This document shows, in pieces, positions 3,518-55,174 of a stretch of 64,000 nucleotides of DNA. This DNA is from an uncultured Gammaproteobacteria bacterium (GTDB taxonomy: Bacteria > Patescibacteriota > Microgenomatia > UBA8517). A program made the translations under genes and the position numbers. Each line of letters starts with the position of its first letter. The first letter of the stretch is position 1. The stretch is taken from assembly GCA_964599625.1 (NCBI GenBank), contig CAZRGC010000002.1:7883-71882 (forward strand), in the 5' to 3' direction. Below the pieces are notes generated by a model. That model worked only from the letters and a program-made list of their open reading frames with translations. It did not search any database and was not told the DNA's origin.

Positions 3518-3699
3518 CGAGGCTAAAATGACTATGGGTATACTATTTTGAGAGGCAAAATCAACTTATGGGATTTGACATAACCCAAGGTGGGTGTTAC
3601 ACTTTTTTCAATTGATCGGGAAACCGTATTTATTTGGTTTATTTAAGAAGAACTTTTAAATTTTTGAGTGAAAATTTGTAAGTTTAATATTTTTTGGGA

Positions 3700-4010
3700 A
3701 GACCAAAAAAAGAGCATCGCCATCGTTGGGTTCTCCTCTAAAATTAAAGGGACTCGCCACGAATAGAGATGCTCTTTAAAACTAACCAGGCACTAAAAAT
3801 TGCCTGGACACGGGATTTGTCTTGCAGACAGGACAACTAGCTAACGACTAATTAATTCAAGACAAATCGTTATCAGACTAAATCTATGGGGATTTGTTGT
3901 CAAGGGTCTTTTCACGGATAAAAGGGATTTTGTTGGACTTAGGGACGGGTGGTTTGTTGGGCAGGCGAACTACCCGCTCCTAAGCTTAATAAGATCCCTT
4001 TTTTTGTTTC
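3700..4010 (+). ncRNA. candidate structured RNA or 5' leader (unclassified) upstream of the sortase gene
   Basis: Three or more strong stems: aaagagcatc(3709-3718)/gatgctcttt(3768-3777); ccaggca-loop-tgcctgg (3786-3807); a 15-bp imperfect stem 3938-3952/3970-3984 followed 14 nt later by a T7 run; no ORF; consensus motifs of RNase P RNA, tmRNA and SRP RNA not found. Confidence 0.2.
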
Positions 4011-4041
4011 TGGTGTAGCCAATATATAATTAAATGTCACC

Positions 4042-4767
4042 ATGGAACATCTTGTTTATCATTATTCCCACTCGCCTGAAGATGGTGTTTTTGTGGTCGG
4101 GCCTCCGCCTATATCACCGGAAAAAATAAAACCGGGCGGCGCTAAAGTTGCCAAGATACTTTTGAGGATCTCCAGACTTTTTGCCTACGTCGGTGTGGTT
4201 CTTCTGCTTATCGCATACTTGCCAAGCATCTTTTTTTGGTTGCAGGGACTTAGTTTTGGAGCAAATGACAATTTTAAGCTTACAGAGGCAGAGGTTGAAA
4301 CACTGGCCAAAGATGTAAAAATTTTGGAAAACTACTCTCCAGCCTTTGATCCAAAGCTTCCAAAAGACAACCACCTTACAATTAAGGCTATTGGTGTTAA
4401 TACCACTGTTCAAGAAGCAACGCTTGATAATTATGAGGCTGCGCTTAAAAAGGGGGTTTGGAGGGTTTCGGATTTTGGAGCTCCCGGCGAGACGGGTGTG
4501 CCTGTCATACTTGCAGCTCACAGATATGGCTATCTTGCCTGGACAAACAGTTTCCGTAGGCTGAACTCGTTTTTTAATCTCCCTAAACTTAATGTTGGCG
4601 ATCTTGTGGAAATTTCTTGGCACCAACGTAAATATACGTATGCCATTTACGGAGAAGATAAAGGTGAACACATCACTGATTATTCAGCCGATCTGATCCT
4701 ATATACATGCGAAACATTGAACGGCCCTGTCAGAATATTCAAATACGCCAAGCTTCTCAAAATTTGA
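4042..4767 (+). CDS. sortase family transpeptidase (class E-like), membrane-anchored
   Basis: N-terminal TM anchor; conserved His motif ILAAHRYG (LxxHR), Cys motif LILYTCETLNG (TLxTC-like), C-terminal Arg. Confidence 0.75.
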   Translation: MEHLVYHYSHSPEDGVFVVGPPPISPEKIKPGGAKVAKILLRISRLFAYVGVVLLLIAYLPSIFFWLQGLSFGANDNFKLTEAEVETLAKDVKILENYSPAFDPKLPKDNHLTIKAIGVNTTVQEATLDNYEAALKKGVWRVSDFGAPGETGVPVILAAHRYGYLAWTNSFRRLNSFFNLPKLNVGDLVEISWHQRKYTYAIYGEDKGEHITDYSADLILYTCETLNGPVRIFKYAKLLKI

Positions 4768-16811: not shown

Positions 16812-16882
16812 GGGCTCGTAGTTAAATGGTATAACGTATCATTCGCATTGATATGTTGGCGGTTCGATTCCGCCCGAGTCCA
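16812..16882 (+). tRNA. tRNA-Ala (anticodon CGC), CCA not encoded
   Basis: Acceptor stem GGGCTCG/CGAGTCC with one G-U pair; anticodon stem TATCA/TGATA with loop TTCGCAT; T-arm GGCGG-TTCGATT-CCGCC. Confidence 0.7.
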
Positions 16883-16885
16883 CAA

Positions 16886-16929
16886 GTTCGATTCCCTGCC
16901 TGCCGGCAGGCAGGCGCCCGAGTCCACCA
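16886..16929 (+). repeat. direct duplicate of the tRNA-Ala T-loop/3' acceptor with an inserted 20-nt perfect palindrome, ending CCA
   Basis: gttcgattcc + cctgcctgccggcaggcagg + cgcccgagtccacca; matches tRNA positions 16862-16883. Confidence 0.6.
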
Positions 16930-16940
16930 GGGTAGGGAAA

Positions 16941-17052
16941 AGTGATTAGGGATTGGTGAATAGTTGGAAACAAAAAATATTTTTCTAGAATGATCAGTGA
17001 GCGTCGATTAGTAATCAGTAACTAATCACTATTCACTAATATCTAATCACTA
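16941..17052. repeat. inverted-repeat pair of the AGTGATTAGGG / CTAATCACT family enclosing about 55 nt (empty cassette)
   Basis: agtgattagggattggtgaatag (16941-16963) versus ctaatcactattcactaatatctaatcact (17023-17052). Confidence 0.55.
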
Positions 17053-17056
17053 TCGT

Positions 17057-18010
17057 CTACGCCTTCGTGTAAAACACGGATCTTCCGCGGCCCTGGGAGA
17101 GAAGTAGCCCCAGGTTCATAAGTTTGGAAAGGTCCCTGGAAGCTGTAATTTGCGAAACCCCAAACATTTTTTGATAATCTTTATTTGTGATTTTGGTGCC
17201 AGGTTTATCCATTTGTGCTAATAATTCCTTTTGCCTGATACTTAGCTTGACCAACGACTCACTTCGTTTATGGGGGACTGTTATTTTTTGGATAATGTCC
17301 AGAGTTTTTTCCAACGCCTGAACCATGCCGTCCGCATAATACTCTAGCCAAGTGGTTATTCCGGGATTTACAGAAAATTTACTTGTAAATGCAGTGTATT
17401 TTTCAATGTTTAACTTATGAAACATATCTACGCTGTACATTCCCCGAATGTCATAGCCATTTTTGTAAAGTGTAAGGTAAGCCAATAGCCCTGCAACCAT
17501 GTTGTTTCCATATTCCAAAAGCCTTGCGCTTACAAACTCGGAGTGCATTATGCCTGCAAGGACAATCGGATGGTCTTTACCCTGATTAAGGAAGTTGAGT
17601 GCGTTAACAACCATTTTGGTCGACATATCTGTAACACCTTTCATCTTTCCCATGTAAGGCTTGCAAGCCAATAAATATATTTTTTTAACAGTATCTGTTG
17701 TTATTGGGTTTGGGTTAACAGTCCATTCTTCGTGTATATAATCAAAAAATTTTTTTAATGCAAAGATTTTTAGTTGAATTTGAGTTGGTTTCTTGGGGAA
17801 GGGGGATTCCAATATCTTTTCTATTTCGTATGGTTCCATATCATCACCATCCAAAGAAAGAATCCATCTGATTTTGTCTATTCTAAAAAACCACAAAAGG
17901 TCTCGCTCTACTTTGGTATTAATTGGGGTCGTTAATATTTTTATTCTAAGTCTGTCGGCGTTTGCCAACGATGATTTTATCTTTTCTGTAAGAGTATATG
18001 AGGTGTTCAT
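17057..18010 (-). CDS. Fic/DOC family protein with degenerate Fic motif and C-terminal winged HTH
   Basis: 317 aa; C-terminal KDYQKMFGVSQITASRDLSKLMNLGLLLSQGRGRSVFY typical of Fic-family wHTH; the HPFx(D/E)GNGR position reads ARLLEYGNNMVAG (no His/Arg). Confidence 0.6.
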   Translation of the reverse strand: MNTSYTLTEKIKSSLANADRLRIKILTTPINTKVERDLLWFFRIDKIRWILSLDGDDMEPYEIEKILESPFPKKPTQIQLKIFALKKFFDYIHEEWTVNPNPITTDTVKKIYLLACKPYMGKMKGVTDMSTKMVVNALNFLNQGKDHPIVLAGIMHSEFVSARLLEYGNNMVAGLLAYLTLYKNGYDIRGMYSVDMFHKLNIEKYTAFTSKFSVNPGITTWLEYYADGMVQALEKTLDIIQKITVPHKRSESLVKLSIRQKELLAQMDKPGTKITNKDYQKMFGVSQITASRDLSKLMNLGLLLSQGRGRSVFYTKA

Positions 18011-20958: not shown

Positions 20959-21348
20959 TCAGATATAGGAGTTATACAACCAGTGAACAAAGATTGCTAC
21001 AATGGTTGCTATCAAAGACGTAAGGTAACCCCTCCTGGTACCCAAATAAATGATTAAAAACGTAAATGAATGGAGAACCGATGTAAGCAAGAAACGGACC
21101 CCCAAAAGCCTCACATCGCCGTACAGGTTAATTTTAAAGATATATAACACCGTCTCTGACATTGCAAAAAAAACACCTGCAAGTAGTGCGGATTTTATTC
21201 CATTTTTTTGTGATGGTCCGCGGTTAATAATAAATAAAACTACTGCAAGTTTAAAAAGCTCTTCAACAAAATGGGGGTAGGGAAGGAGAAGCTCAATAGG
21301 CCACACCAAAAAAGGTCCAAAAAGGGAGAACAATAGAGAATAGTGCAT
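20959..21348 (-). CDS. small polytopic membrane protein (hypothetical)
   Basis: 129 aa, 4 TM helices. Confidence 0.45.
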   Translation of the reverse strand: MHYSLLFSLFGPFLVWPIELLLPYPHFVEELFKLAVVLFIINRGPSQKNGIKSALLAGVFFAMSETVLYIFKINLYGDVRLLGVRFLLTSVLHSFTFLIIYLGTRRGYLTSLIATIVAIFVHWLYNSYI

Positions 21349-21423
21349 AGCGTTTAGCGTATAGTTCTAATCTTGGTTCCTAACTAACTATACCCTATAC
21401 GCTGTAATCTATGCCCATGTTTT

Positions 21424-21562
21424 ATTTTTTGGTCGATTTCTTGAATTCGCGGATAGCGTCTCCTATTCCTTTTCCAAGTTCGGGAAGTTTTTTGCCTCCG
21501 AAAAGGACCAAAAGAATTACAAAAATAACTACCAATTCTGTCATGCCGATATTTTTAAACAT
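21424..21562 (-). CDS. tatA: TatA (paralog 2)
   Basis: [46 protein letters not shown]; immediately downstream of tatC; not in the ORF track (under 60 aa). Confidence 0.7.
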
Positions 21563-21590
21563 TTTTTTGCACCCCCTTTCAATAAACCAA

Positions 21591-22331
21591 TTACTCTTTA
21601 ATCAAAATCCTGCTCAATATTAATGTAACCTCGAATAAAATTACAAGAGGCATCGCCAGAAGAATATCTGCAAGAATTGAATCGATTGGCAAAAGTACAG
21701 CAAATACCAGTGCGCCAAAGTATACCCATTTGCGCTGTTTTTCTATTTGTGGGCGTTTGAGAGCTTTGAATTTCATCAAAAGGAGAAGAACTATCGGGAA
21801 CTGGAAACCAACACCAAGTATGGCCGATGACATAAGAACAACAGATAAAAGTCTGCTTATATCCAATATGTTTCCGATACCCAAAGATGTGGATTGAGAC
21901 AGAAATATCTCGATTTGCCATTTCATTATGAACGCACCGAAACTAAAACCAACCAGGAAAAGTACTATTGAGAACGGTAGAAAATAAAGAAGGGCTTTGT
22001 ACTCTGAACTTTTGAGCGCGGGTTTAAGAAAAGACAATATTTGAGAAATTATCAGCGGAAAAGCAAGGACTATGCCGGTTATAAATCCGCAGGAGAATGC
22101 CAAATTAATAAATTGGAATGGGGATGTAAAAACTATGTTGATACCTTTAAGGCTAAATATATCTACAACAAAACCAATTATTTTTTCGTAAAAAACAAAA
22201 CCTGCTAATGCACCTATCAAAAAAACTGAAGCTGCAAAAAAAACTCTTTTTCTGGCCTCCAATAGCAGGGGATAATACTTGTTTATAGTCTCTTGCATAG
22301 TAGCACCTCCAAGCAATCCTTTTTCATCCAT
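21591..22331 (-). CDS. tatC: twin-arginine translocase subunit TatC
   Basis: 246 aa, 6 TM helices, typical TatC layout. Confidence 0.8.
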
Positions 22332-22388
22332 AGTATGAGTTTAAGAAAGAAGCGAGGTTAGTGCAAGTAAATCAAAGAAAAAGTAGAG

Positions 22389-22547
22389 TTATTCTTCTTT
22401 TTCGTCACCGTCGTCTTTAGAAGCTTTTTTATATTCTTGAATTGACTGACCCAAACCTTTGAAGAACTCGGGAATTTTTCTCCCTCCAAAAAGGAAGATA
22501 AGTATTAAAGCTATTACAATAATTTCACCAAGTCCAATTCCTGTCAT
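22389..22547 (-). CDS. tatA: TatA (paralog 3)
   Basis: MTGIGLGEIIVIALILIFLFGGRKIPEFFKGLGQSIQEYKKASKDDGDEKEE; 2 nt downstream of paralog 4. Confidence 0.7.
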   Translation of the reverse strand: MTGIGLGEIIVIALILIFLFGGRKIPEFFKGLGQSIQEYKKASKDDGDEKEE

Positions 22548-22549
22548 TT

Positions 22550-22750
22550 TTATTCTTCTTTTTCTTCCTCGTCTTTTTCTACACTATCTTTGGCGTCCTT
22601 GAAGTCGTCTTTTATTTTTTTGAACTCTTTTGTGGTTTCACCGGCTGCTTTGCCAAGCTCAACAATTTTTTTGCTTCCGAAGAAAACGATAATGATAACC
22701 CCAATTACTATTAGTTCGCCGAGTCCGATATTTTTAATGAAATTGAACAT
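22550..22750 (-). CDS. tatA: TatA (paralog 4)
   Basis: MFNFIKNIGLGELIVIGVIIIVFFGSKKIVELGKAAGETTKEFKKIKDD... acidic tail. Confidence 0.7.
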   Translation of the reverse strand: MFNFIKNIGLGELIVIGVIIIVFFGSKKIVELGKAAGETTKEFKKIKDDFKDAKDSVEKDEEEKEE

Positions 22751-22761
22751 GCTACAAGTGC

Positions 22762-22790
22762 ATACTATGACTAACTAAATCAAAATGCAA
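22762..22790 (-). promoter_or_regulatory. candidate promoter of the tatA-tatA-tatC-tatA operon (near-leaderless)
   Basis: Minus strand TTGCAT, 17 nt, TAGTAT, about 12 nt to the ATG. Confidence 0.25.
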
Positions 22791-22802
22791 GTAGTAAAAA
22801 TA

Positions 22803-22836
22803 GGGGTTAGGGATTAGTGATTAGGGTATAGTTGGG
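22803..22836. repeat. left inverted repeat of the AGTGATTAGGG family
   Basis: ggggttagggattagtgattagggtatagttgggg. Confidence 0.55.
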
Positions 22837-22848
22837 GACAGGGAGTTG

Positions 22849-23241
22849 TTACCGCTTGTAGGCCATTACATATAACATCTTGATGATTTCAGTTAATAGA
22901 ATAATGACATTGTCGAATTCTTCATTGGAGACAAAATCGAGCTCTTTGGCGATAATTAGTTGTGTTTCAACTTCAAGAGATGAGCCATAAGCAATCGAGT
23001 AAAACTGAATATATTCTTTATGAGATCTGCGGCCATATCCTTCTGCAATGTTGGATGCTATTGAGATAGAAGCACGCCTAATTTGGTCTGTTAATGAGTA
23101 AATCTCTGTTTTTGGAAACTTTTTTGTTAGTTTGTAAACAGTTTTTGTGAGGACTATCGACTTTTGCCATACAACCAAGTCTTTGTACGTCAGTATTTTG
23201 TGTCCTTGTGCCATAACTATTCTCAAATCTCTAATCACCAT
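22849..23241 (-). CDS. four-helix-bundle protein of the 23S rRNA intervening-sequence / Avd-like family
   Basis: 130 aa; DLVVWQKS ... FPKTEIYSLTDQIRRASISIASNIAEGYGRRSHKEYIQFYSIAYGSSLEVETQL matches the PF05635-type signature (recalled). Confidence 0.75.
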   Translation of the reverse strand: MVIRDLRIVMAQGHKILTYKDLVVWQKSIVLTKTVYKLTKKFPKTEIYSLTDQIRRASISIASNIAEGYGRRSHKEYIQFYSIAYGSSLEVETQLIIAKELDFVSNEEFDNVIILLTEIIKMLYVMAYKR

Positions 23242-23303
23242 TTCCTAATCACTTTGTTCCTGTTCTATTAACTATTCCCTAGTCCCTAATCTCTAATCAC
23301 TAC
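23229..23303. repeat. right inverted repeats of the same family (several CTAATCAC(T/C) / CCCTAATC copies)
   Basis: ctaatcacc (23231-23239), cctaatcact (23244-23253), ccctagtccctaatctctaatcactac (23277-23303). Confidence 0.55.
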
Positions 23304-24598
23304 TTAAGAGAGGCAATTGTCGCTTTTACTTTTGCATCCTTTAGGTTGCGCCCTGCAGTGCCTGGAGTTACATGGCCGGAGATAACCTCGTCCCAGACGG
23401 CATCGGCAATTGCGCTAGCCGACTCTCCGCCTGCTTGAGTTTCTATAAATGTTCCTGTTCCGTTGTCGCGGGTTGCCGCAACAGAGTTGCCAGAGAAGGT
23501 GTGATTGAGTCTGACTCCCGTTCTTGTTACGCCGGTTCCCACATCAATCCCATAACCGGTGTTGTTGAATATAAGATTTGTTTCAAAAATATTGTCGGTG
23601 ACACCTGACCCGGAAAGGTCGATTCCGTCTGCGCCGTTGCCTGAAAGAATACTTTGTCTCACATTTAGTTTTGTTGTGGTTGCACCAATTTTTATTCCTG
23701 TTCCGGTAGAATCTTCAATTGCGCAGGTGTCAATTTGAGTCCTTGAGGAGCTACTGATATCTATTCCGTTTCCTGTGACTGATTTGATCCAACAGTTTTT
23801 GACGAGGCAATTATCGCCGGTAATTGTTATCCCGTTATCTGTTCCACCGGCTGCAGTTTGTACATAAAACCCTTCAAACTCCACCGTGTCACCGCTGATG
23901 TTGACGGTTGGGGACCCATTTGTTGTTGGAACGAGTTGGAACTGATATCCTGCACCCCGGACTTTGAGTCCTGCTTTGGTAATTGTCAGTTTTTCTGTTG
24001 TGGTTGTGACACCACCACTTGCCGTGGCGAGTGCAAAAATAATATCTCCCGCACCGGCTGTGGCCAGAGTTTGAGCTTGGGCAAATGTTGCAACTGCCTT
24101 TGCGGGGGTAAGTCCGTCATTGGCATCACTGCCGCTTGTTGGATTCCAGTAATAAATTGTTCCGACACTTCTGCTTCTACCCCTCAGACTTTCCAACATG
24201 TAAAGTGTTGCATAATCTGCATCTGCTTGAATAATAGATGGGGAAGTGGATTGGGCAATGTTTACCTGAGTAAACGCGGTTGGTTTTATCGGGTTATTTG
24301 AATATTGATTAACAGCAACCAGGTTGCCTCCTGAAACCGTACAAAGAATTGTGTCAGGGCCGGATCTTGCCTCGAACGCAATGCGCCAGTCGTTAATAAG
24401 CTCCAAAGTGATACCGATGTAAGCGCCGCCACCTAGGGACTGTTTGCCATATGCGTTTGCAATATGGCCGTAATCAAGATTTTCCAGCCTTTCTTCGTAC
24501 ACCCGTATTTGGTTTACCAAATCCTGAATAGTTACGGATGTTTGGGGTGCATCTACTTGTATAACTTTTTCGTATTTGAAAAATGTAAGATTTGCCAT
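23300..24598 (-). CDS. right-handed beta-helix protein, phage tail-fibre/tailspike-like
   Basis: 432 aa; repeated NGITITGDNCLVKNCWIKSVTGNGIDISSSS / TGTGIKIG / GNGADGIDLSG / NNTGYGIDVG parallel beta-helix repeats. Confidence 0.65.
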   Translation of the reverse strand: MANLTFFKYEKVIQVDAPQTSVTIQDLVNQIRVYEERLENLDYGHIANAYGKQSLGGGAYIGITLELINDWRIAFEARSGPDTILCTVSGGNLVAVNQYSNNPIKPTAFTQVNIAQSTSPSIIQADADYATLYMLESLRGRSRSVGTIYYWNPTSGSDANDGLTPAKAVATFAQAQTLATAGAGDIIFALATASGGVTTTTEKLTITKAGLKVRGAGYQFQLVPTTNGSPTVNISGDTVEFEGFYVQTAAGGTDNGITITGDNCLVKNCWIKSVTGNGIDISSSSRTQIDTCAIEDSTGTGIKIGATTTKLNVRQSILSGNGADGIDLSGSGVTDNIFETNLIFNNTGYGIDVGTGVTRTGVRLNHTFSGNSVAATRDNGTGTFIETQAGGESASAIADAVWDEVISGHVTPGTAGRNLKDAKVKATIASLK

Positions 24599-24618
24599 AT
24601 TTTGTTAGCGATTTGAGA

Positions 24619-24637
24619 ATAGGGTATAGGGTGTAGT
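24619..24637. repeat. partial repeat-family copy (aatagggtatagggtgtag)
   Basis: Shares the agggtatag core with 22824-22834 and, as reverse complement, 21386-21402. Confidence 0.4.
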
Positions 24638-24670
24638 TTGGCTGTAAAACCGTACGCCAGACACCGTCTG

Positions 24671-25594
24671 CTATCTCGTAAATACTGAGACTTTTATTTT
24701 GGGAATCAAACTTCCGTTTTCTGTTTTGTAGGTAATATCAGGGTGGGCTTTTATCCCCAGGAAATTTTCAACGCCGATGTTTTTCAAAAGCGATGATCCT
24801 TTGTCTAGGCTAATCTCGGTAGAGCTTTCCTGAGAAAATGCCTGTTTGCCTGGATCGTAAATAAAATCTATTCTTTCTGCACTTATGTTTTGCCTAAGTT
24901 TATTAAGGTTCATCCCAGTTGAATTCAGAAGATTCCAGTCTTTGCTTTGTGCGTCATAAAATGACAGGGGAATAAGTCCTTTGTCAAAAAGAGCGACAAA
25001 GTGGCCAATGTGTTCCGCAATTTTAACTGCAAACTCGCCGATGCCAATACTTACTTGCGGGTTGTCCTTAAGATATTCCAATAGGTGCCTGTTTACCAGA
25101 AATATATTCCCTTTTTCATTTTGGGCAAAATATACATAGCTGTTGTTTAGCTGAAAAAGAGGGTTGAGTTTGTATTTGGCAAATATTCTTTTGGTGGCGG
25201 AATCTATGCCGTTTGGATTAAGTGTCAAAAGGTTTGCGTCGTTCACCAAGTAGGCTTGGGTTTGCGGATCAAATATCCTGAGTCCTATGTTTTTTGTAAC
25301 ATTTTTAAGAAGGTTTAACGAAACTCCGTCGTTCCAATCACACGTCAAGGTGATGTGATTTGATATTCTAGTATCAGTTAAATCATGTTTTATATTAGTA
25401 CTTAAAGAAGCGGTGAGGGGTGTTCCCACATAAAAAATAGTCGCAAAGTCGTCGCCTGTTTTTTTGACCTCTATTTCGCCAGTAAAAGTAATCAGGTAAT
25501 CTATTATTTTTTGAAGATTTTCCTTGGGGCTTGCTTCCATCCGTTCAACTGTAAGATGATATTGGACTTGTTTATCGAAATCTTTGTATATCAT
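24671..25594 (-). CDS. hypothetical protein
   Basis: 307-aa ORF; no motif recognised. Confidence 0.5.
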   Translation of the reverse strand: MIYKDFDKQVQYHLTVERMEASPKENLQKIIDYLITFTGEIEVKKTGDDFATIFYVGTPLTASLSTNIKHDLTDTRISNHITLTCDWNDGVSLNLLKNVTKNIGLRIFDPQTQAYLVNDANLLTLNPNGIDSATKRIFAKYKLNPLFQLNNSYVYFAQNEKGNIFLVNRHLLEYLKDNPQVSIGIGEFAVKIAEHIGHFVALFDKGLIPLSFYDAQSKDWNLLNSTGMNLNKLRQNISAERIDFIYDPGKQAFSQESSTEISLDKGSSLLKNIGVENFLGIKAHPDITYKTENGSLIPKIKVSVFTR

Positions 25595-32068: not shown

Positions 32069-33697
32069 ATGATGGACAATTTTTCAGTCAGACTTAGAGT
32101 TGCCCTGCTCCTGGCTTCTGCACTAATTCCTGCACTAATATTCATTGGAGGAGGTGTTTACTATCGTTATTCTGATGCTTCTGGTAATGCAATAAAGGAA
32201 CTATCCAACTCTTCAAGAAATTTCTCAAAAGAACAAGCGCAAAATATCGAAGGTGCAAGACAACTTCTTGTTGCTGTTTCGCAAACACCGCAAATAACAA
32301 TGTTTGATAAGAGAATGTGTGGGAACTATCTCGCGACTTTGTTAAATAATTTTTCCAGATATGCGAATTTTGGTGTTGCGGCAACAAATGGAGATGTAAT
32401 ATGCTCCGCAGTTCCTATTGATTTGCCTGTCAATGTAAAAGACAAGTTGTATTTCAAAAAAGTTTTAAACTCCAAAACTTTTAGCGTTGGAGAGTATAGC
32501 ATTGGAAACATTACAGGCAAGCCTGTCTTAAATTTTGGTTACCCAATACTAAACTCTAATGGTGCTTTGATTGGGGTGGTTTTTTCTTCACTCGACCTCG
32601 GTTGGATGAATGATTTCTTGTCTGCGAGTTTGGAAGGTGAAGATACTGTGCTTATGGTTCTTGATCATGAAGGCACTATAATGGCGAGAAATATAGATCC
32701 GGGTTTGTGGATAGGTAAATCGTTTGCAAAAGATCCACTTTTTCAAAAAATATTACAAAAAGGCGGGGGAGCCACCGATCTTGTGGGAATTGACGGAATA
32801 AAACGGCTTTACGCTTTTCAGAAGCTTGGAGAATCTGATTCGGCATATGTTGTTGTTGGTAAAACTCAAAACGAGGTATTTAAGGGGGCAATATCCAGCC
32901 TAAAGACAAGTTTGTTGGTGGTTCTGTTAATGGGAATTATGATTGCAGTTGTTTCGTACAGGATTGGAAACATTTTTATAATAAAAAAGATTGAAGATTT
33001 ACAGGAGATAGACAGGTTAAAAAGTGAGTTCGTCTCAATCGCATCTCACCAGTTAAGGACGCCCCTTTCTGCCATAAACTGGTTTTTGGAACTATTGGAT
33101 GATGAAAAAAATAAACTGACAACCTATCAAAAGAAAATTGTTAGGAATATTAAGGAGTCAAACGGAAGGATGATTGATCTCGTGGAATCGCTTTTGAATG
33201 TGTCCAGAATTGAGTCAAAAAAGTTAAAAGTTGAGCGTGCCGAGGTTGAAGTAAACAAAGAAGTTAAAAAAGTTGTGGATGCAGTTTCCCCAAAGACGAT
33301 AATGAAAAAACAACGGTTCGTGTTCAAACCCAATTCAGCCCGGCTGCTTATTGATGTAGACCCAAAACTTTTCTTTCAGATTGTGAACAACATAGTCACA
33401 AACGCTATCAAATACACACCGCCAAAAGGAAAAATAATTGTTAACGTTTCCTCCAAAAATTCCCGTGCGGTTGTCAAAGTTGCAGATAGTGGTTATGGTA
33501 TTTCAAAACAAGATAAAGGTAAAATTTTTCAGAAATTTTTCAGAGGAGCAAATATTTCCGGTCGCGATATCGAAGGGACAGGTCTTGGGCTTTTTATAGC
33601 AAAGTCAATCGCCGAAGAAATGGGTGGAAAAGTTACTTTTACAAGTACAGAAGGAAAAGGGTCGACATTTTACATTTCATTCCCAGTGCAATCTTAA
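32069..33697 (+). CDS. sensor histidine kinase with periplasmic double-Cache-like domain (HK1)
   Basis: TM, Cache-like sensor, TM, HisKA (IASHQLRTPLSAINWF), HATPase (ADSGYGIS ... GTGLGLFIAKSI). Confidence 0.85.
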   Translation: MMDNFSVRLRVALLLASALIPALIFIGGGVYYRYSDASGNAIKELSNSSRNFSKEQAQNIEGARQLLVAVSQTPQITMFDKRMCGNYLATLLNNFSRYANFGVAATNGDVICSAVPIDLPVNVKDKLYFKKVLNSKTFSVGEYSIGNITGKPVLNFGYPILNSNGALIGVVFSSLDLGWMNDFLSASLEGEDTVLMVLDHEGTIMARNIDPGLWIGKSFAKDPLFQKILQKGGGATDLVGIDGIKRLYAFQKLGESDSAYVVVGKTQNEVFKGAISSLKTSLLVVLLMGIMIAVVSYRIGNIFIIKKIEDLQEIDRLKSEFVSIASHQLRTPLSAINWFLELLDDEKNKLTTYQKKIVRNIKESNGRMIDLVESLLNVSRIESKKLKVERAEVEVNKEVKKVVDAVSPKTIMKKQRFVFKPNSARLLIDVDPKLFFQIVNNIVTNAIKYTPPKGKIIVNVSSKNSRAVVKVADSGYGISKQDKGKIFQKFFRGANISGRDIEGTGLGLFIAKSIAEEMGGKVTFTSTEGKGSTFYISFPVQS

Positions 33698-36517: not shown

Positions 36518-36889
36518 TTAACCCTTAACGTTTCTTAGTGTTTTGGCCACGAGTTCGTCCAAATCCAAATCGCTTTTGACTATATAGTCTGTTGTCCCTG
36601 CGGTACCTTGTTCATCCTCTGGTAAATTACTTGCTACAATTACTGGTATTTTTCCCAATCTTTCGTCACTTTTTACACGTCTTAAAAATTCATACCCATC
36701 AATACCAGGAAGCAGTATATCAAGAACTATAACATCAGGAAGTTTTTTTTCAGTCTTCAAAAGCTCCAAACCTTCCTCGGCGGTTCTCACTGCATCAACT
36801 TTAAATTTCTTCTCTTCAAACTTATACTTCATGGCCTTGCCTATAAACTTATCGTCCTCGATTATTAAAACTTTTGGTGTTTTTTTCAT
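36518..36889 (-). CDS. single-domain response regulator (RR2)
   Basis: VLIIEDDKFIG ... DVIVLDILLPGIDG ... IPVIVASNL. Confidence 0.8.
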   Translation of the reverse strand: MKKTPKVLIIEDDKFIGKAMKYKFEEKKFKVDAVRTAEEGLELLKTEKKLPDVIVLDILLPGIDGYEFLRRVKSDERLGKIPVIVASNLPEDEQGTAGTTDYIVKSDLDLDELVAKTLRNVKG

Positions 36890-36931
36890 ATCAATGTATA
36901 TCTATTGTGTAGCAAATTTTAAACAAAATAC

Positions 36932-38590
36932 CTATATAGGAATAGTAACATAAAAAGTAGTTTTTCCTTTGGTGCTCTCAAAATAAATTTTCCCAATGTG
37001 TGCCTCAACTATTAGTTTGGATAGATAAAGACCTAGCCCTGCACCTTCGCCATCTACAATCTTTGCGTTAGAAGCTCTGGAAAACTTTTGAAACAAAATG
37101 TTTTTTTCGCTTTCAGGAATCCCGATTCCAAAATCGGTCACTGAAATTTGCAGGTTATTTCTCAATTTCGTAGTCGTCACGTAAACACTGCCTTTTTCGT
37201 TAGAATATTTAAATGCGTTGTTTATCAGATTTACAAGGAGTTGTCTAAACAATTTTTCATCAACAAATATTTTTTTCGGTGTTGCCTTGGCTATGTTTAA
37301 TTTAATGGTTAACTTTTTTGCTCTAAAACCTGTTTTAACTTCGTCAACAACACTATTAATTAGCGTTGTTGTTGTGACGCTGGTTTTGTCGGGTTTGATT
37401 TTTCCTGATTCCAATTTTGCTATTTGAAGCAGGATTGAAACCAGACCTGTCATTCTCTGGGTTGAGGCAAGTGTGTCCATAAGCAAGTCTCTCTGTTTCC
37501 GGTTTAGTTTTCCGGAAGAACCGGAAAGTAGAATTTGCGTAAACCATTTAATTGAGGTTATTGGAGTCCTTAATTGGTGGCTCACCAAGGAAACGAAATC
37601 GTGTCTTAGTTTTTCGATCGATTCAAGTTCCTCAATTGACCTGGATATTAACCATCTGCCCACATAAAAACCCACTCCGATAGACGCAAGAACGATCAAA
37701 ACTGAAAAGGCAATCACCTTATTAAAATATTGCTGGGAGCTTTTGTATATATCGTTTTTGGATTTTCCAACAGCCAAGTAAATACCCGGATTGTTGGCGC
37801 CAATTTTTTTGTATGAGTATATTCTTTCAACACCGTCTATTCCCGAGGACTGAACTGTTCCAAAGTCTTTTGTTAAACTCTTTACAAGAGGGTCTCCAGA
37901 GAATTCTTTTCCGATACAGTCGCAATTTAGGTCTGGATTTCTGGCCAGGATCACACCTTTTCCATCCAGAACCAAGACAACTATATTTTCATCTATCTCA
38001 ATAGATGCGAGAAAATCGGACAACCATTCGAGGCTGAGGGTTGCATAAACAACACCATGGCTGTTCTCCATGGGGTAGCCGAAGTTTATACTGGATTCAT
38101 TTGTAGTCCTGCTAACAACGTATTCTCCAACTGAAAAGTTATTTGTTTTTAATGTCTCTTGAAAAAACAGTCTGTCTGATAAGTTTATATTTGTAATAGG
38201 TGTGACTGCAGAACAAATAACGTCACCCTTCAAATTTGAAACACCAAAATTACCATATCTTTGGTATTTTGTTAATAAGTTGGACAAATAATTGTTACAT
38301 ATACTCTTACCAGATTTAACTTCTGGAGTTGCAGAAAGAGTTACGAGTAATTGTCTTGCACCTTCAATTATTTGTGTATTCTCAGATGCTATGGACTTGG
38401 CGATGTTGTCTAGTTTTTCAATCTCCAAGTCTTTTGAAATTTTAAGTTGATTTAAATTTATTCCTGCGATAAGGATAAAAACTGGAGTAAGAGTTGCAAT
38501 AGTCAAAAAAAGCACCCTTGCTCTAACTCGGTTGTACGACTTATGCATTTGTATCTTCGTCAAGTGAAATCGTAACTGAGAATCCTGCAT
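36932..38590 (-). CDS. sensor histidine kinase with Cache-like sensor (HK2)
   Basis: VSLVSHQLRTPITSIKWF HisKA; HATPase (TDFGIGIP ... GAGLGLYLSKLI); overlaps the G3 3' end by 50 nt. Confidence 0.85.
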   Translation of the reverse strand: MQDSQLRFHLTKIQMHKSYNRVRARVLFLTIATLTPVFILIAGINLNQLKISKDLEIEKLDNIAKSIASENTQIIEGARQLLVTLSATPEVKSGKSICNNYLSNLLTKYQRYGNFGVSNLKGDVICSAVTPITNINLSDRLFFQETLKTNNFSVGEYVVSRTTNESSINFGYPMENSHGVVYATLSLEWLSDFLASIEIDENIVVLVLDGKGVILARNPDLNCDCIGKEFSGDPLVKSLTKDFGTVQSSGIDGVERIYSYKKIGANNPGIYLAVGKSKNDIYKSSQQYFNKVIAFSVLIVLASIGVGFYVGRWLISRSIEELESIEKLRHDFVSLVSHQLRTPITSIKWFTQILLSGSSGKLNRKQRDLLMDTLASTQRMTGLVSILLQIAKLESGKIKPDKTSVTTTTLINSVVDEVKTGFRAKKLTIKLNIAKATPKKIFVDEKLFRQLLVNLINNAFKYSNEKGSVYVTTTKLRNNLQISVTDFGIGIPESEKNILFQKFSRASNAKIVDGEGAGLGLYLSKLIVEAHIGKIYFESTKGKTTFYVTIPI

Positions 38591-54067: not shown

Positions 54068-55174
54068 TTAAATCTTTTCGTTGTGTACCAAAACACCGTC
54101 GGCAAAATATGCGTGATATGGACCAGGAAGGGAAATGTTGTACACGGTATTGGTGCCGTCAACATGTTCTATCGAGCTTACGGTATATGCGTTTCCGTCT
54201 GAATTCAAAAGTGTATCACCAATACTTAAAGACTCAGCAGTTATCCAGGCATTTCTGCTCGGGGACCACATAAGATGGTTACCTGTAACTTTAATTGTAC
54301 CGTTTATATTAAGGTAGCCGCCCTGGACGTCTTTGTGCACCAGAAGCTTGCTTACAACTTGAGGAAATGTTCTTCTGTTGGCCAAATCGTAAGAGAGAAT
54401 TATGTCCCCAGTTTTAATGTCTTCAATTGACTTTGTGGAACCATCAGCAAGTGCTACTTGTGTACCGGGGAGGAAACAGCTTGAGTAGTACAGTTGAGAA
54501 TAGGAATATGCCGCATATGATGATTGACCATAACCATAATATGTGCCTTGACTGTAGCTATAGTAAATTCCTTGGCCATAGCCATAGTATGATGATTGAG
54601 AATAGCCATAGTAGGCACTTTGAGCATAAGCGTAATAAGTAGATTGTGAATATGAATAGCAAGTATTTGTAAGTGAGAACGACGACGGTCCGCAATCAAC
54701 TGTTGAATATGAGTCAAAAAGACCAAGTCTTCTGTAGCCCGAGGCTGTGGCCGTTCTAAAATTAGTCAATGTAAAATTATCAGCCCAACCGTCGGCGTCT
54801 GTATCCTGAAGATAAATGGGTGTTCCAGATTTAATTGCTCCTCCGGCTTGCACGGCAATGCTCCCGGCTCCCACAGTGAGAGAGCCCACTGCCAGTGTGC
54901 CTGTGTTATTGATTGTTATATTGCCACCAGTGGTAAGACTTAGTTGAGCAGTGTTTGTTGTAGATGCATCGGTAGCACCATTATCCACACCTTCAACAGT
55001 ACTTGCTGAAATAGAACAGGCGGTGGCCCAATTCAGAACATTTTTTGTTGAGGCGGTCATAGAAGAGTAGAAATTGCATGCGGCGCTAGCAGATTTTGCG
55101 GAAGCCAAAAGGAGTATTCCGGAGATCGCAAAACTTATAACTATTTTGAGCGTGTTATTTTGTGTCTTTTGCAT
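54068..55174 (-). CDS. secreted protein with Tyr-rich octapeptide repeats and C-terminal Hint (bacterial intein-like) domain
   Basis: Signal peptide; (S/G)xYY(G/A)Y(S/G)Q x6; Hint domain begins SCFLPGTQVALADG and ends GVLVHN (Cys1 ... His-Asn). Confidence 0.65.
   Translation of the reverse strand: MQKTQNNTLKIVISFAISGILLLASAKSASAACNFYSSMTASTKNVLNWATACSISASTVEGVDNGATDASTTNTAQLSLTTGGNITINNTGTLAVGSLTVGAGSIAVQAGGAIKSGTPIYLQDTDADGWADNFTLTNFRTATASGYRRLGLFDSYSTVDCGPSSFSLTNTCYSYSQSTYYAYAQSAYYGYSQSSYYGYGQGIYYSYSQGTYYGYGQSSYAAYSYSQLYYSSCFLPGTQVALADGSTKSIEDIKTGDIILSYDLANRRTFPQVVSKLLVHKDVQGGYLNINGTIKVTGNHLMWSPSRNAWITAESLSIGDTLLNSDGNAYTVSSIEHVDGTNTVYNISLPGPYHAYFADGVLVHNEKI
54482..54658. repeat. 24-bp tandem coding repeat (x6-7) encoding Tyr-rich octapeptides
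   Basis: Repeated ccatagtatgatgattgagaatag-like units within 54068..55174. Confidence 0.6.

Follow-up and report, generated by a model that had tools for sequence, protein, structure and literature searches.

A probable IVS-type cassette with a PF05635 gene and heptamer-repeat arms in an intergenic spacer of a CPR bacterium

Intervening sequences, heptamer arrays and their proteins

Thousands of four-helix-bundle proteins of the 23S rRNA IVS protein (IVP) family are annotated without a function. Where the intervening sequences (IVSs) of rRNA genes come from and how they move has been an open question since about 1990, and the heptamer arrays of bacteria are likewise unexplained. Avd, the accessory variability determinant of diversity-generating retroelements (DGRs), is a pentamer that binds RNA and reverse transcriptase (RT), and RAYT is a Y1 transposase whose chemistry is known.

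The 23S rRNA IVS of Coxiella is 428 nt long, with a 28-bp terminal stem and tandem GACAGAT repeats upstream of an ORF for the protein S23p, and it is excised by RNase III (PMC4990558). The S23p ORF is decaying and apparently untranslated, and the number of repeats varies between Coxiella strains (PMC4990558). An ORF-containing 23S IVS is also recorded from Leptospira (Ralph & McClelland 1993, as cited in PMC4990558). Tandem heptamer arrays have been described separately–for example, GGGAATC in Xanthomonas, GGGGAYT (STRR-type) in Nostoc, and TAACTGA in Beggiatoaceae and cyanobacteria (PMC4692102, PMC4679880).

The locus reported here lies in a 64-kb stretch of DNA (the window). Together with roughly 150 other loci it links IVP proteins, rRNA IVSs and heptamer arrays. 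On balance we think it probable that its central element, H3, is an ORF-carrying IVS-type cassette of the same kind as the S23p-encoding 23S rRNA IVSs of Leptospira and Coxiella, situated in an intergenic spacer of a CPR (Microgenomates-like) bacterium.

Period-7 repeats and hairpin elements in the window

A detector of period-7 repeats returned exactly five segments in the 64-kb window, compared to 0.2 in shuffled sequences:

17004-17055, period-7 segment
21328-21367, period-7 segment
22797-22835, period-7 segment
23260-23311, period-7 segment
24605-24640, period-7 segment

The core GTGATTAG has seven copies in the window, all within 16942-17050 and 22817-23300 (expectation 1.57 +/- 1.26; 0 of 100 shuffles reach seven), and the core GGGTATAG lies forward at 22824 and 24622 and reverse at 21388. 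Because the segments and the core counts exceed those in shuffles, the repeats are neither chance nor ubiquitous AT-rich spacer, a trivial origin that a preliminary description of this DNA had left to be checked. That description had placed every core correctly, and the five arrays coincide with its sites, but it overlooked a forward arm at 21334-21366, with which 21334-21412 forms a hairpin complete in itself. The repeats fall naturally into four hairpin elements, of which only H3 has an ORF. They and the genes around H3 are:

16931-17060, H1, ORF-less hairpin with five heptamers per arm and a 54-nt loop
21334-21412, H2, ORF-less hairpin: TAGAGAA TAGTGCA TAGCGTT TAGCGTA TAGTT, a 19-nt loop, and the complement
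21419-22750, minus strand, tatA-tatA-tatC-tatA operon, downstream neighbour of H3 and outside the element
22755-22796, minus strand, conserved non-coding block upstream of tatA, ACTTGCATTTTGATTTA...CATAGTATG
22797-23303, minus strand, H3, probably a full IVS-type cassette, made up of a 5' heptamer arm, a duplicate of that arm, the PF05635 ORF and a complementary 3' arm
22849-23214, minus strand, IVP gene, 121 aa from its probable start (the longest ORF extends to 23241)
23300-24598, minus strand, gene for a 432-aa beta-helix protein (PF13229), upstream neighbour co-oriented with the IVP gene
24604-24671, H4, 67-nt insertion in which one heptamer arm is clear (24604-24637) and its partner degenerate

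H1, H2 and H4 belong to the same repeat family as the arms of H3. H1, the ORF-less copy of the repeat pair previously noticed at about 16.9 kb, lies 48 nt after a tRNA-Ala gene, and its outer TAG serves as stop codon for a 317-aa gene (17057-18010, minus strand). It folds with -47 kcal/mol (z -5.8), its arm is most like the H3 arms, and the closest relative of the window, L168, has a hairpin at the same place. H2 lies between tatA3 and a PrsW-like gene, to which it provides the start codon, and is an insertion of ~70 nt relative to L168, L170/171 and the more distant relative L085. Its arm is closest to those of two IVP loci, L086 and L087, and agrees with the 5' arm of the L087 cassette at 22 of 22 positions, which makes H2 a homologue of IVP-cassette arms from another organism. 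H4, between a 307-aa gene and the beta-helix gene, is a clean insertion relative to L168, and the spacer there is 2 nt long in another relative, L172. Judged from these alignments, H2 and H4 are recent insertions specific to the window. The three ORF-less hairpins have MITE/REPIN-like traits: they are short, with terminal inverted repeats, related copies and presence/absence polymorphism.

The alternating orientation of the repeats had been read as bracketing the tat operon and the beta-helix gene as further cassettes. That part of the description is not supported: H2 and H4 are missing in all the relatives examined (L168, L172, L085 and L170), where both the operon and the gene stand unbracketed, and the alternation is simply the outcome of three adjacent hairpin elements.

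The ORF-bearing element and its turnover in relatives

H3 fills the interval that separates the beta-helix stop codon from the conserved block preceding tatA. Its limits are visible in the alignment of the window with L168, where nucleotide identity is ~78% in the flanks and 41-68% inside; L172 has a 48-nt spacer at this position. The conserved block, a putative tat promoter or leader that is not called by a consensus promoter scan, marks the downstream limit and is kept in the window, L168, L170 and partly L085. H3 is not an artefact, because it is identical in three independent Logan assemblies and differs by 3 SNPs in a fourth. Its arms are:

23270-23303, minus strand, 5' arm G1: GTAG TGATTAG AGATTAG GGACTAG GGAATAG TT
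23215-23255, minus strand, second 5' arm G2, ending ATAGTT immediately before the ATG at 23214
22797-22834, minus strand, 3' arm C: AACTATA CCCTAAT CACTAAT CCCTAAC CCCTAT, complementary to G1

The PF05635 gene is thus tightly bracketed by 4-5 purine/G-rich heptamers of YAG type on its 5' side (here G-rich TAGNGAT) and a complementary array on its 3' side. This supports the inverted-repeat-bracketed, IVS-like cassette that had been proposed around the gene. H3 leaves no gap to the co-oriented gene upstream: the first TAG of G1 (23300-23302) doubles as the beta-helix stop codon. The IVP gene has the same strand as both adjacent genes. G2, which the preliminary description had not noticed, is part of a tandem duplication of ~55 nt comprising the arm and the ORF start, compared to a single arm abutting the ATG in L085 and L086. 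The G1:C RNA duplex has a predicted energy of -31.1 kcal/mol (z -4.6; 0/500 shuffles). The G2:C duplex (-24.3 kcal/mol) is not significant, and the fold of the whole H3 RNA is no better than shuffles (z -1.1). Pairing of G1 with the H4 arm, across the beta-helix gene, is stronger than G1:C (-35.6 kcal/mol, z -7.7), and we read this complementarity as a by-product of shared ancestry. The shuffle-like fold of the whole RNA and the stronger G1:H4 pairing both count against the IVS interpretation.

The ORF at 22849-23241 (minus strand) was confirmed; its real start is probably the ATG at 23214, because homologues span only residues ~10-130. Membership of PF05635, assigned in the preliminary description, is upheld at 138.7 bits (cut-off 33.8), with 131.3 bits for TIGR02436 (cut-off 24) and 144.2 for NF008911 (cut-off 137). 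An AlphaFold model (pLDDT 92.4) has four helices in an up-down bundle, and Foldseek aligns it to the structures 2GSC (TM 0.86-0.93) and 2RLD (TM 0.76-0.89); in a phmmer search the match to 2GSC is 5e-20. 2GSC, its closest solved relative, is a homopentameric ring according to work cited in PMC4990558, and is in this respect like Avd (PDB 4DWL, 8UBE). IVP shares the fold and superfamily of Avd (TM 0.73-0.82 to 4DWL) at only about 7% sequence identity, and is basic (pI 9.2). By fold, we regard it as a putative Avd-like pentameric scaffold that binds nucleic acid. The protein is better conserved than the products of neighbouring genes, and comparison with its orthologue in L085 (74% identical, dN 0.17, dS saturated) clearly points to purifying selection.

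H3 resembles the rRNA IVSs in several ways. Both have lengths of about 430-510 nt and an ORF of one family (S23p/PF05635) that reads in the sense direction of the host transcript, and in both the inverted repeats at the termini make a stem of about 30 bp. Both are also sporadic in distribution, which implies horizontal transfer. As in Coxiella, tandem heptamers lie directly upstream of the ORF, and GACAGAT rotates to CAGATGA, a YAG unit. There are also differences. The cassette is located between protein-coding genes and not in helix 9, 25 or 45 of 23S rRNA (Rfam finds only tRNA in the window), it is accompanied by ORF-less hairpins, and its excision by RNase III is inferred whereas that of the Coxiella IVS is proven. 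The window ORF is clearly under selection, unlike the decaying S23p ORF, which speaks against the IVS interpretation.

The junction occupied by H3 has a history separate from that of its flanking genes. L168 is 93% identical to the window in the beta-helix protein and 81% in TatC but only 54% in IVP, whereas L085 is 48% identical in the beta-helix protein and 57% in TatC but 74% in IVP. L172, with 80% identity in the beta-helix protein, has no IVP gene at the junction, and the synteny of the tat operon is kept in L085, L168, L170 and L172. L086 and L087 have arms and ORF in common with unrelated flanks. By these comparisons the arms travel with the ORF, and the cassette has been gained, replaced or lost at the junction independently of the genes beside it, in agreement with the mobility first supposed for it. 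We regard H3 as a little-studied kind of mobile cassette, because relatives show that the unit and the gene-less hairpins are gained, swapped and lost. ORF, heptamer arms and ORF-less hairpins behave as one cassette family that turns over on the 3' ends of genes.

We propose that the cassette would have no promoter of its own (the consensus scan calls none in it) and would be transcribed by read-through from the beta-helix gene, its likely source of transcription. In the RNA the arms would then form about 33 bp of imperfect duplex (-31 kcal/mol), and by analogy with the Coxiella and Leptospira IVSs (PMC4990558) RNase III would cut this duplex, releasing the cassette RNA and parting it from the host transcript. 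Such release would account for how rRNA genes and operons tolerate cassettes within them. The TAGnnnn units of this lineage would also provide translation stops in all three frames.

Family-wide architecture and alternative explanations

We made a census of about 150 homologous PF05635 loci from many phyla, mostly in MAGs and rich in Acidobacteriota, limited to IVPs that are 46-57% identical to the query. An inverted-repeat score of at least 26 was found at 72% of 76 loci, compared to 0.4% of 269 neighbouring genes used as controls (Mann-Whitney p = 2e-27), and flanking inverted repeats were seen again at 79% of 71 independent metagenome loci. Lag 7 is the dominant periodicity in the flanks. 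YAG occurs in 165 of 178 arrays (55 +/- 6 expected), and the consensus unit is YAGGGAW. Median arm length is 31 nt, with 85% Watson-Crick pairing, and the distance to the ORF is 13.5 nt on the start side and 10 nt on the stop side; most arms (67 of 104 loci) have 4-5 units. Polarity is fixed: the G-rich arm is the 5' one in 63 of 66 loci and again in 52 of 56. In keeping with dependence on transcription from the host, the IVP gene shares the orientation of the gene upstream in 111 of 132 loci (84%, versus 60% of control pairs). No rRNA location was found for the window cassette or any of the 167 loci checked, which counts against the IVS interpretation. Mismatches in the stems show no excess of G.U over A.C (101 versus 114), so selection for pairing in the sense RNA is not demonstrable.

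The conserved YAG core and the fixed polarity are left unexplained by a simple RNase III stem. An alternative that we consider somewhat unlikely is a DNA-level system of autonomous and non-autonomous elements like RAYT and REPINs, in which an IVP homopentamer would recognise about five YAG heptamers, one per subunit, binding single-stranded or hairpin DNA (or RNA) and promoting the copying or maintenance of arrays. H1, H2 and H4 would then be non-autonomous derivatives and the rRNA IVSs copies that landed in 23S genes. The resemblance is that one gene is flanked by an inverted short repeat that also occurs in the same genome as intergenic ORF-less hairpins. The YAGGGAW unit is conserved across phyla though pairing does not need it, which fits this alternative, as do the prevalence of 4-5 units per arm, the fixed polarity, the missing wobble signal specific to the RNA strand, the conservation of IVP above that of its neighbours and its similarity in fold to a pentamer that binds RNA and RT. 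The ORF-less hairpins share homology with cassette arms and show turnover. Within the region of synteny, the three genomes that carry a cassette (window, L085, L168) have hairpins and the two without one (L170, L172) have none, a co-occurrence in five genomes only. Against this, RAYT is a Y1 transposase while IVP has no catalytic domain and no recognised motif of a nuclease or recombinase, REPs do not consist of tandem heptamers, and the likeness is architectural only. The only gene that shares the repeats is IVP, without a transposase domain. Neither the H3 nor the H4 junction shows a target-site duplication, although the divergence of the genomes compared may hide one, and the heptamers differ strongly from locus to locus at a protein identity of about 50%.

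As a tentative proposal, IVP genes with inverted YAGGGAW arrays might constitute a widespread and so far unrecognised class of selfish cassette, whose pentamer recognises arms of about five heptamers. Its non-autonomous offspring would be ORF-less hairpins (H1, H2, H4 and perhaps the heptamer pairs seen in Xanthomonas, cyanobacteria and Acidobacteriota), and the 23S IVSs would be copies that landed in rRNA. The arrays of Xanthomonas, Nostoc, Beggiatoaceae and cyanobacteria are similar in being 7-nt tandem repeats, G-rich on one strand, mostly intergenic, variable in copy number and often found in convergent inverted pairs. They differ in that the papers describing them make no link to PF05635 (PMC4692102, PMC4679880), whereas the window arrays are arms of a cassette that encodes a protein, and the unit consensus across loci is YAGGGAW.

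That literature, with its lack of a link to S23p (PMC4692102, PMC4679880), would also suit the idea that the arrays are generic intergenic repeats, prone to slippage or of G-quadruplex type, which a resident IVP gene happens to adjoin. The 609 kb of loci contain 79 arrays away from IVP flanks (about 70 without N runs), including some convergent pairs, and repeat number differs among Coxiella strains. The enrichment at IVP flanks contradicts this idea (72-79% of IVP genes are bracketed, versus 0.4% of neighbouring genes), the arms lie close against the ORF and move with it into unrelated contexts, and many units (CAGCGAT, TAGTGAT, CAGGCAA) are unable to form G-quadruplexes, so we judge it improbable.

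Still less credible is that the hairpins are terminators or attenuators of the adjacent operons, with the IVP gene incidental. H1, H2 and H3 do start at or just past the stop codons of upstream genes, and a local hairpin right after the IVP stop codon in L087 could alternate with the long-range stem. However, no U-tract follows the stems, a terminator scan was empty at every hairpin, H2 extends over the start codon of the gene that follows, and H2 and H4 are missing from close relatives with the same operons.

A degenerate DGR with the gene as its Avd is scarcely tenable, despite the shared fold and weak matches to bAvd, DivGenRetAVD and PHROG 3206: IVP models score far higher, the gene was rejected as an Avd equivalog (NF033474, 24.7 bits versus 80; PF22296, 24.8 versus 40), a Pfam scan of 38 window ORFs found no RT (RVT), and the only direct repeats of at least 45 nt in the window are segments shared by paralogous genes, at 30-39 kb and at 60-62 kb, with no TR/VR pair, as the preliminary description had also concluded in calling the locus not a complete DGR. 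For practical purposes the locus is not a DGR, and the tat operon and beta-helix gene of the window are not cassettes. Annotation of such loci is affected too: stop and start codons of neighbouring genes fall inside the arms.

Heptamer hairpins around the IVP gene

The window is a chromosome segment of 41% GC from a CPR/Patescibacteria (Microgenomates-like) bacterium, and its genes have their nearest named homologues in Woesebacteria, Daviesbacteria and Microgenomates MAGs. By profile searches we found that its four-helix-bundle gene, IVP, belongs to the 23S-rRNA-IVS-protein family, as the preliminary description had proposed: it matches PF05635 with 138.7 bits (cut-off 33.8) and TIGR02436 with 131.3 bits. 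Its scores with the Avd-specific models are below their cut-offs (PF22296, 24.8 vs 40; NF033474, 24.7 vs 80). In its predicted structure (pLDDT 92.4; TM 0.86-0.93 to 2GSC and 0.73-0.82 to Avd) IVP has the fold of an Avd-like four-helix bundle. Because the alignment of IVP homologues begins only at approximately residue 10, the ATG at 23214 is likely to be the start codon.

The repeat family that had been noticed around this gene is real and local within the window. All 7 occurrences of the sequence GTGATTAG fall in two clusters, compared to 1.6 occurrences expected, and a period-7 detector found exactly five arrays in 64 kb (0.2 in shuffled sequences), all of them at sites where repeats had been described. 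The cassette sequence is the same in three independent assemblies and differs by 3 SNPs in a fourth. The repeats consist of TAGNGAT-type heptamers in tandem, arranged as four hairpin elements (H1 to H4) in which a G-rich array comes first and its complement second, and the inner ends of all arms read ATAGTT...AACTAT.

Hairpin elements and the IVP gene in the window
16931-17060: H1, ORF-less hairpin
21334-21412: H2, ORF-less hairpin
22797-23303: H3, carries the IVP ORF; two 5' arms and a 3' arm
22849..23241, (-) strand: IVP ORF, presence in the window confirmed
24604-24671: H4, 67-nt insertion with one clear arm

The TAG that opens the 5' arm of H3 doubles as the stop codon of the beta-helix gene, which has the same orientation as IVP, and the 3' arm of H3 begins 15 nt past the IVP stop. 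The second 5' arm belongs to a duplication of about 55 nt, comprising the arm and the ORF start, as seen by comparison with the homologous loci L085 and L086. The RNA duplex between the outer 5' arm (G1, 23270-23303) and the 3' arm (22797-22834) has an energy of -31.1 kcal/mol, which none of 500 shuffles reached; for H1 the folding energy is -47 kcal/mol (z about -6). The RNA fold of the whole H3 cassette is no better than shuffles; within it, significance is limited to the arm-arm duplex. Pairing of G1 with the H4 arm, on the far side of the beta-helix gene, is even stronger (-35.6 kcal/mol), which explains the earlier impression of alternating brackets. Contrary to the earlier proposal, neither the tat operon nor the beta-helix gene is itself a bracketed cassette, because the arms around both are parts of elements that relatives lack. 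Scans of the window for promoters and terminators gave background levels only.

The arms also overlap coding sequences. Units in this lineage have the form TAGnnnn, so three successive units give stop codons in all three frames, and upstream genes terminate at an arm's first TAG (window 23300-23302 and 17057-17059; L086 3966-3968). At the second of these sites, the TAG stop of a gene for a 317-aa protein (17057-18010, minus strand) is the outermost heptamer of H1. This protein hits the PADLOC SoFic model at 7.8e-16; its match to a DeoR-type HTH is weak and below threshold (18.5 bits vs a cut-off of 21). At H2, an arm supplies the start codon and first codons of a PrsW-like gene (21348).

Turnover of the cassette among relatives

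We compared the site bounded by the beta-helix stop and by the block preceding tatA in syntenic relatives, which were reached via contigs encoding IVP and via a TatC search; close relatives are absent from the genome and metagenome scan listings, and the turnover argument is based on four or five related genomes.

Syntenic relatives, with amino acid identity to the window
L168 (GCA_964600575.1, closest): beta-helix 93%, TatC 81%; IVP 54%
L172: beta-helix 80%, TatC 70%; no IVP, 48-nt spacer
L085 (distant): beta-helix 48%, TatC 57%; IVP 74%, dN 0.17, dS saturated

The IVP identities are incongruent with those of the flanks, and therefore the cassette has been replaced, gained or lost independently of them. 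Presence, absence and replacement at one junction bear out the suggestion that the cassette is mobile. In L168 just one codon of the IVP ORF (3611-3970), within the QIRRA motif, has changed from CGA to an in-frame TGA; there is no frameshift, and the family motifs are intact. Either this ORF became a pseudogene very recently or the TGA is an error of sequencing.

L086 (Woesebacteria) and L087 have IVPs that are about 70% identical and arms of the TAGCGTA type that are near-identical. Their surroundings are unrelated: in L086 the cassette follows a methyltransferase gene, and in L087 it lies within an operon for T4SS pilins. Homology begins at the arm. The H2 arm agrees with the L087 arm at all 22 of 22 positions and groups with this arm subtype, so we regard H2 as an ORF-less relative of such a cassette. 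H2 and H4 are clean insertions, missing from L168, L172, L085 and L170; H1 is common to the window and L168. In the two relatives without the cassette, the syntenic 8-10 kb is free of heptamer arrays.

L087 has two PF05635 genes of different subfamilies (2557-2919 and 4001-4372) between T4SS pilin genes. The stop of the second gene is followed by an additional G-type arm, so this gene's C arm could form either a local hairpin or the long-range stem.

Inverted repeats flanking IVP genes across the family

We examined 80 IVP-homologue loci among the matches listed in species-representative genomes (Acidobacteriota, Bacteroidota, Fibrobacter, CPR, cyanobacteria and Planctomycetota, with isolates such as Granulicella mallensis among them), and 80 more from JGI metagenomes. 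These loci are mostly MAG contigs, with a bias towards Acidobacteriota and IVPs 46-57% identical to the query, reflecting the retrieval method. Among the matches listed, inverted repeats scoring at least 26 between the two 150-nt flanks are present at 72% and 79% of IVP genes in the two sets, compared to 0.4% of 269 other genes at the same loci, which were simple longest-ORF calls (Mann-Whitney p = 2e-27 for IVP vs control scores). A 7-nt period is dominant in 33 and 37 of 78 IVP flanks among the matches listed, vs 3 of 388 random windows, and in 69 of the 142 flanks from listed matches in the replicate set. In the same listed matches, arms are mostly 4-5 units long (median 31 nt; 85% Watson-Crick pairing), the 5' arm ends a median of 13.5 nt before the start and the 3' arm begins 10 nt after the stop, and IVP is co-oriented with its upstream gene at 84% of loci, vs 60% of control pairs.

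The best-supported reading is that H3 is an IVS-type cassette at the 3' end of a gene. The cassette, apparently lacking its own promoter, would be transcribed by read-through, and its arms would pair into an RNase III-type duplex, leading to processing. ORF-less hairpins of the cassette's repeat family are found in its vicinity. The same design is known from Coxiella burnetii, whose IVS is a 428-nt element in 23S rRNA with an S23p ORF, a 28-bp terminal stem that RNase III cuts, and tandem GACAGAT heptamers just upstream of the ORF that differ in number between strains (PMC4990558); this unit rotates to CAGATGA. A motif search around 167 of the loci placed none within a 23S rRNA gene.

Three features fit poorly with a pure RNA-stem model, and a model akin to RAYT/REPIN, at the DNA level or based on protein recognition, may apply. 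Arm polarity is fixed, with the G-rich arm on the 5' side at 63 of 66 and 52 of 56 loci in the two sets of listed matches. The YAG core of the unit consensus YAGGGAW is conserved, occurring in 165 of the 178 arrays among these matches (55 +/- 6 expected). Stem mismatches, which we used as a test for RNA-level selection, show no excess of G.U over A.C (101 vs 114).

In the literature searched we found no link between free-standing PF05635 genes and heptamer inverted repeats. Published accounts of heptamer arrays, convergent pairs among them, cover Xanthomonas and Nostoc (PMC4692102) as well as Beggiatoaceae and cyanobacteria (PMC4679880), in neither case with a tie to the IVP protein. A terascale CRISPR survey lists '23S rRNA IVP' among CRISPR-array-associated domains (PMC10910872), an association for which flanking heptamer arrays might account.

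In Nostoc paludosum and Aerosakkonema (L068 2197-3360, L079 2045-3385), an ISL3-like transposase ORF adjoining the IVP gene is broken by heptamer hairpins (GGCAGAA/TTCTGCC) whose translation reads LLPSAFCLLP; thus arrays insert into coding sequence too.

Rejected origins and other features of the window

We rejected three other origins. This is not a DGR, and the preliminary description had already argued against a complete one: there is no RT among the 38 ORFs scanned and no TR/VR repeat in the window, and the Avd models are below cut-off. A prophage or defence island is rejected since the neighbours have no PHROG hits and IVP has no PADLOC hit; a search of IMG/VR yielded only 3 IVP relatives. 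Integration at tRNA-Ala fails because the sole duplicate of the tRNA's 3' end stands in tandem with it, and the window contains no distant att copy.

This tRNA-Ala(CGC) (16812-16883) is followed directly by the second copy of its 3' end (GTTCGATTCC...CCCGAGTCCACCA; 16812-16930 overall), which is split by the 18-nt palindrome CTGCCTGCCGGCAGGCAG. The duplication may be an old integration scar. Between 29722 and 42017 lie three large paralogous ORFs (767, 782 and 1158 aa) that have repeated segments in common and no Pfam hit; the 782- and 1158-aa ORFs are on either side of a dCache histidine kinase/response-regulator pair (36518-38590), and a second kinase (32069-33697) adjoins the 767-aa ORF. 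A 368-aa protein encoded at 54068-55174 (minus strand) has a Hint/pretoxin-HINT domain at its C-terminus.
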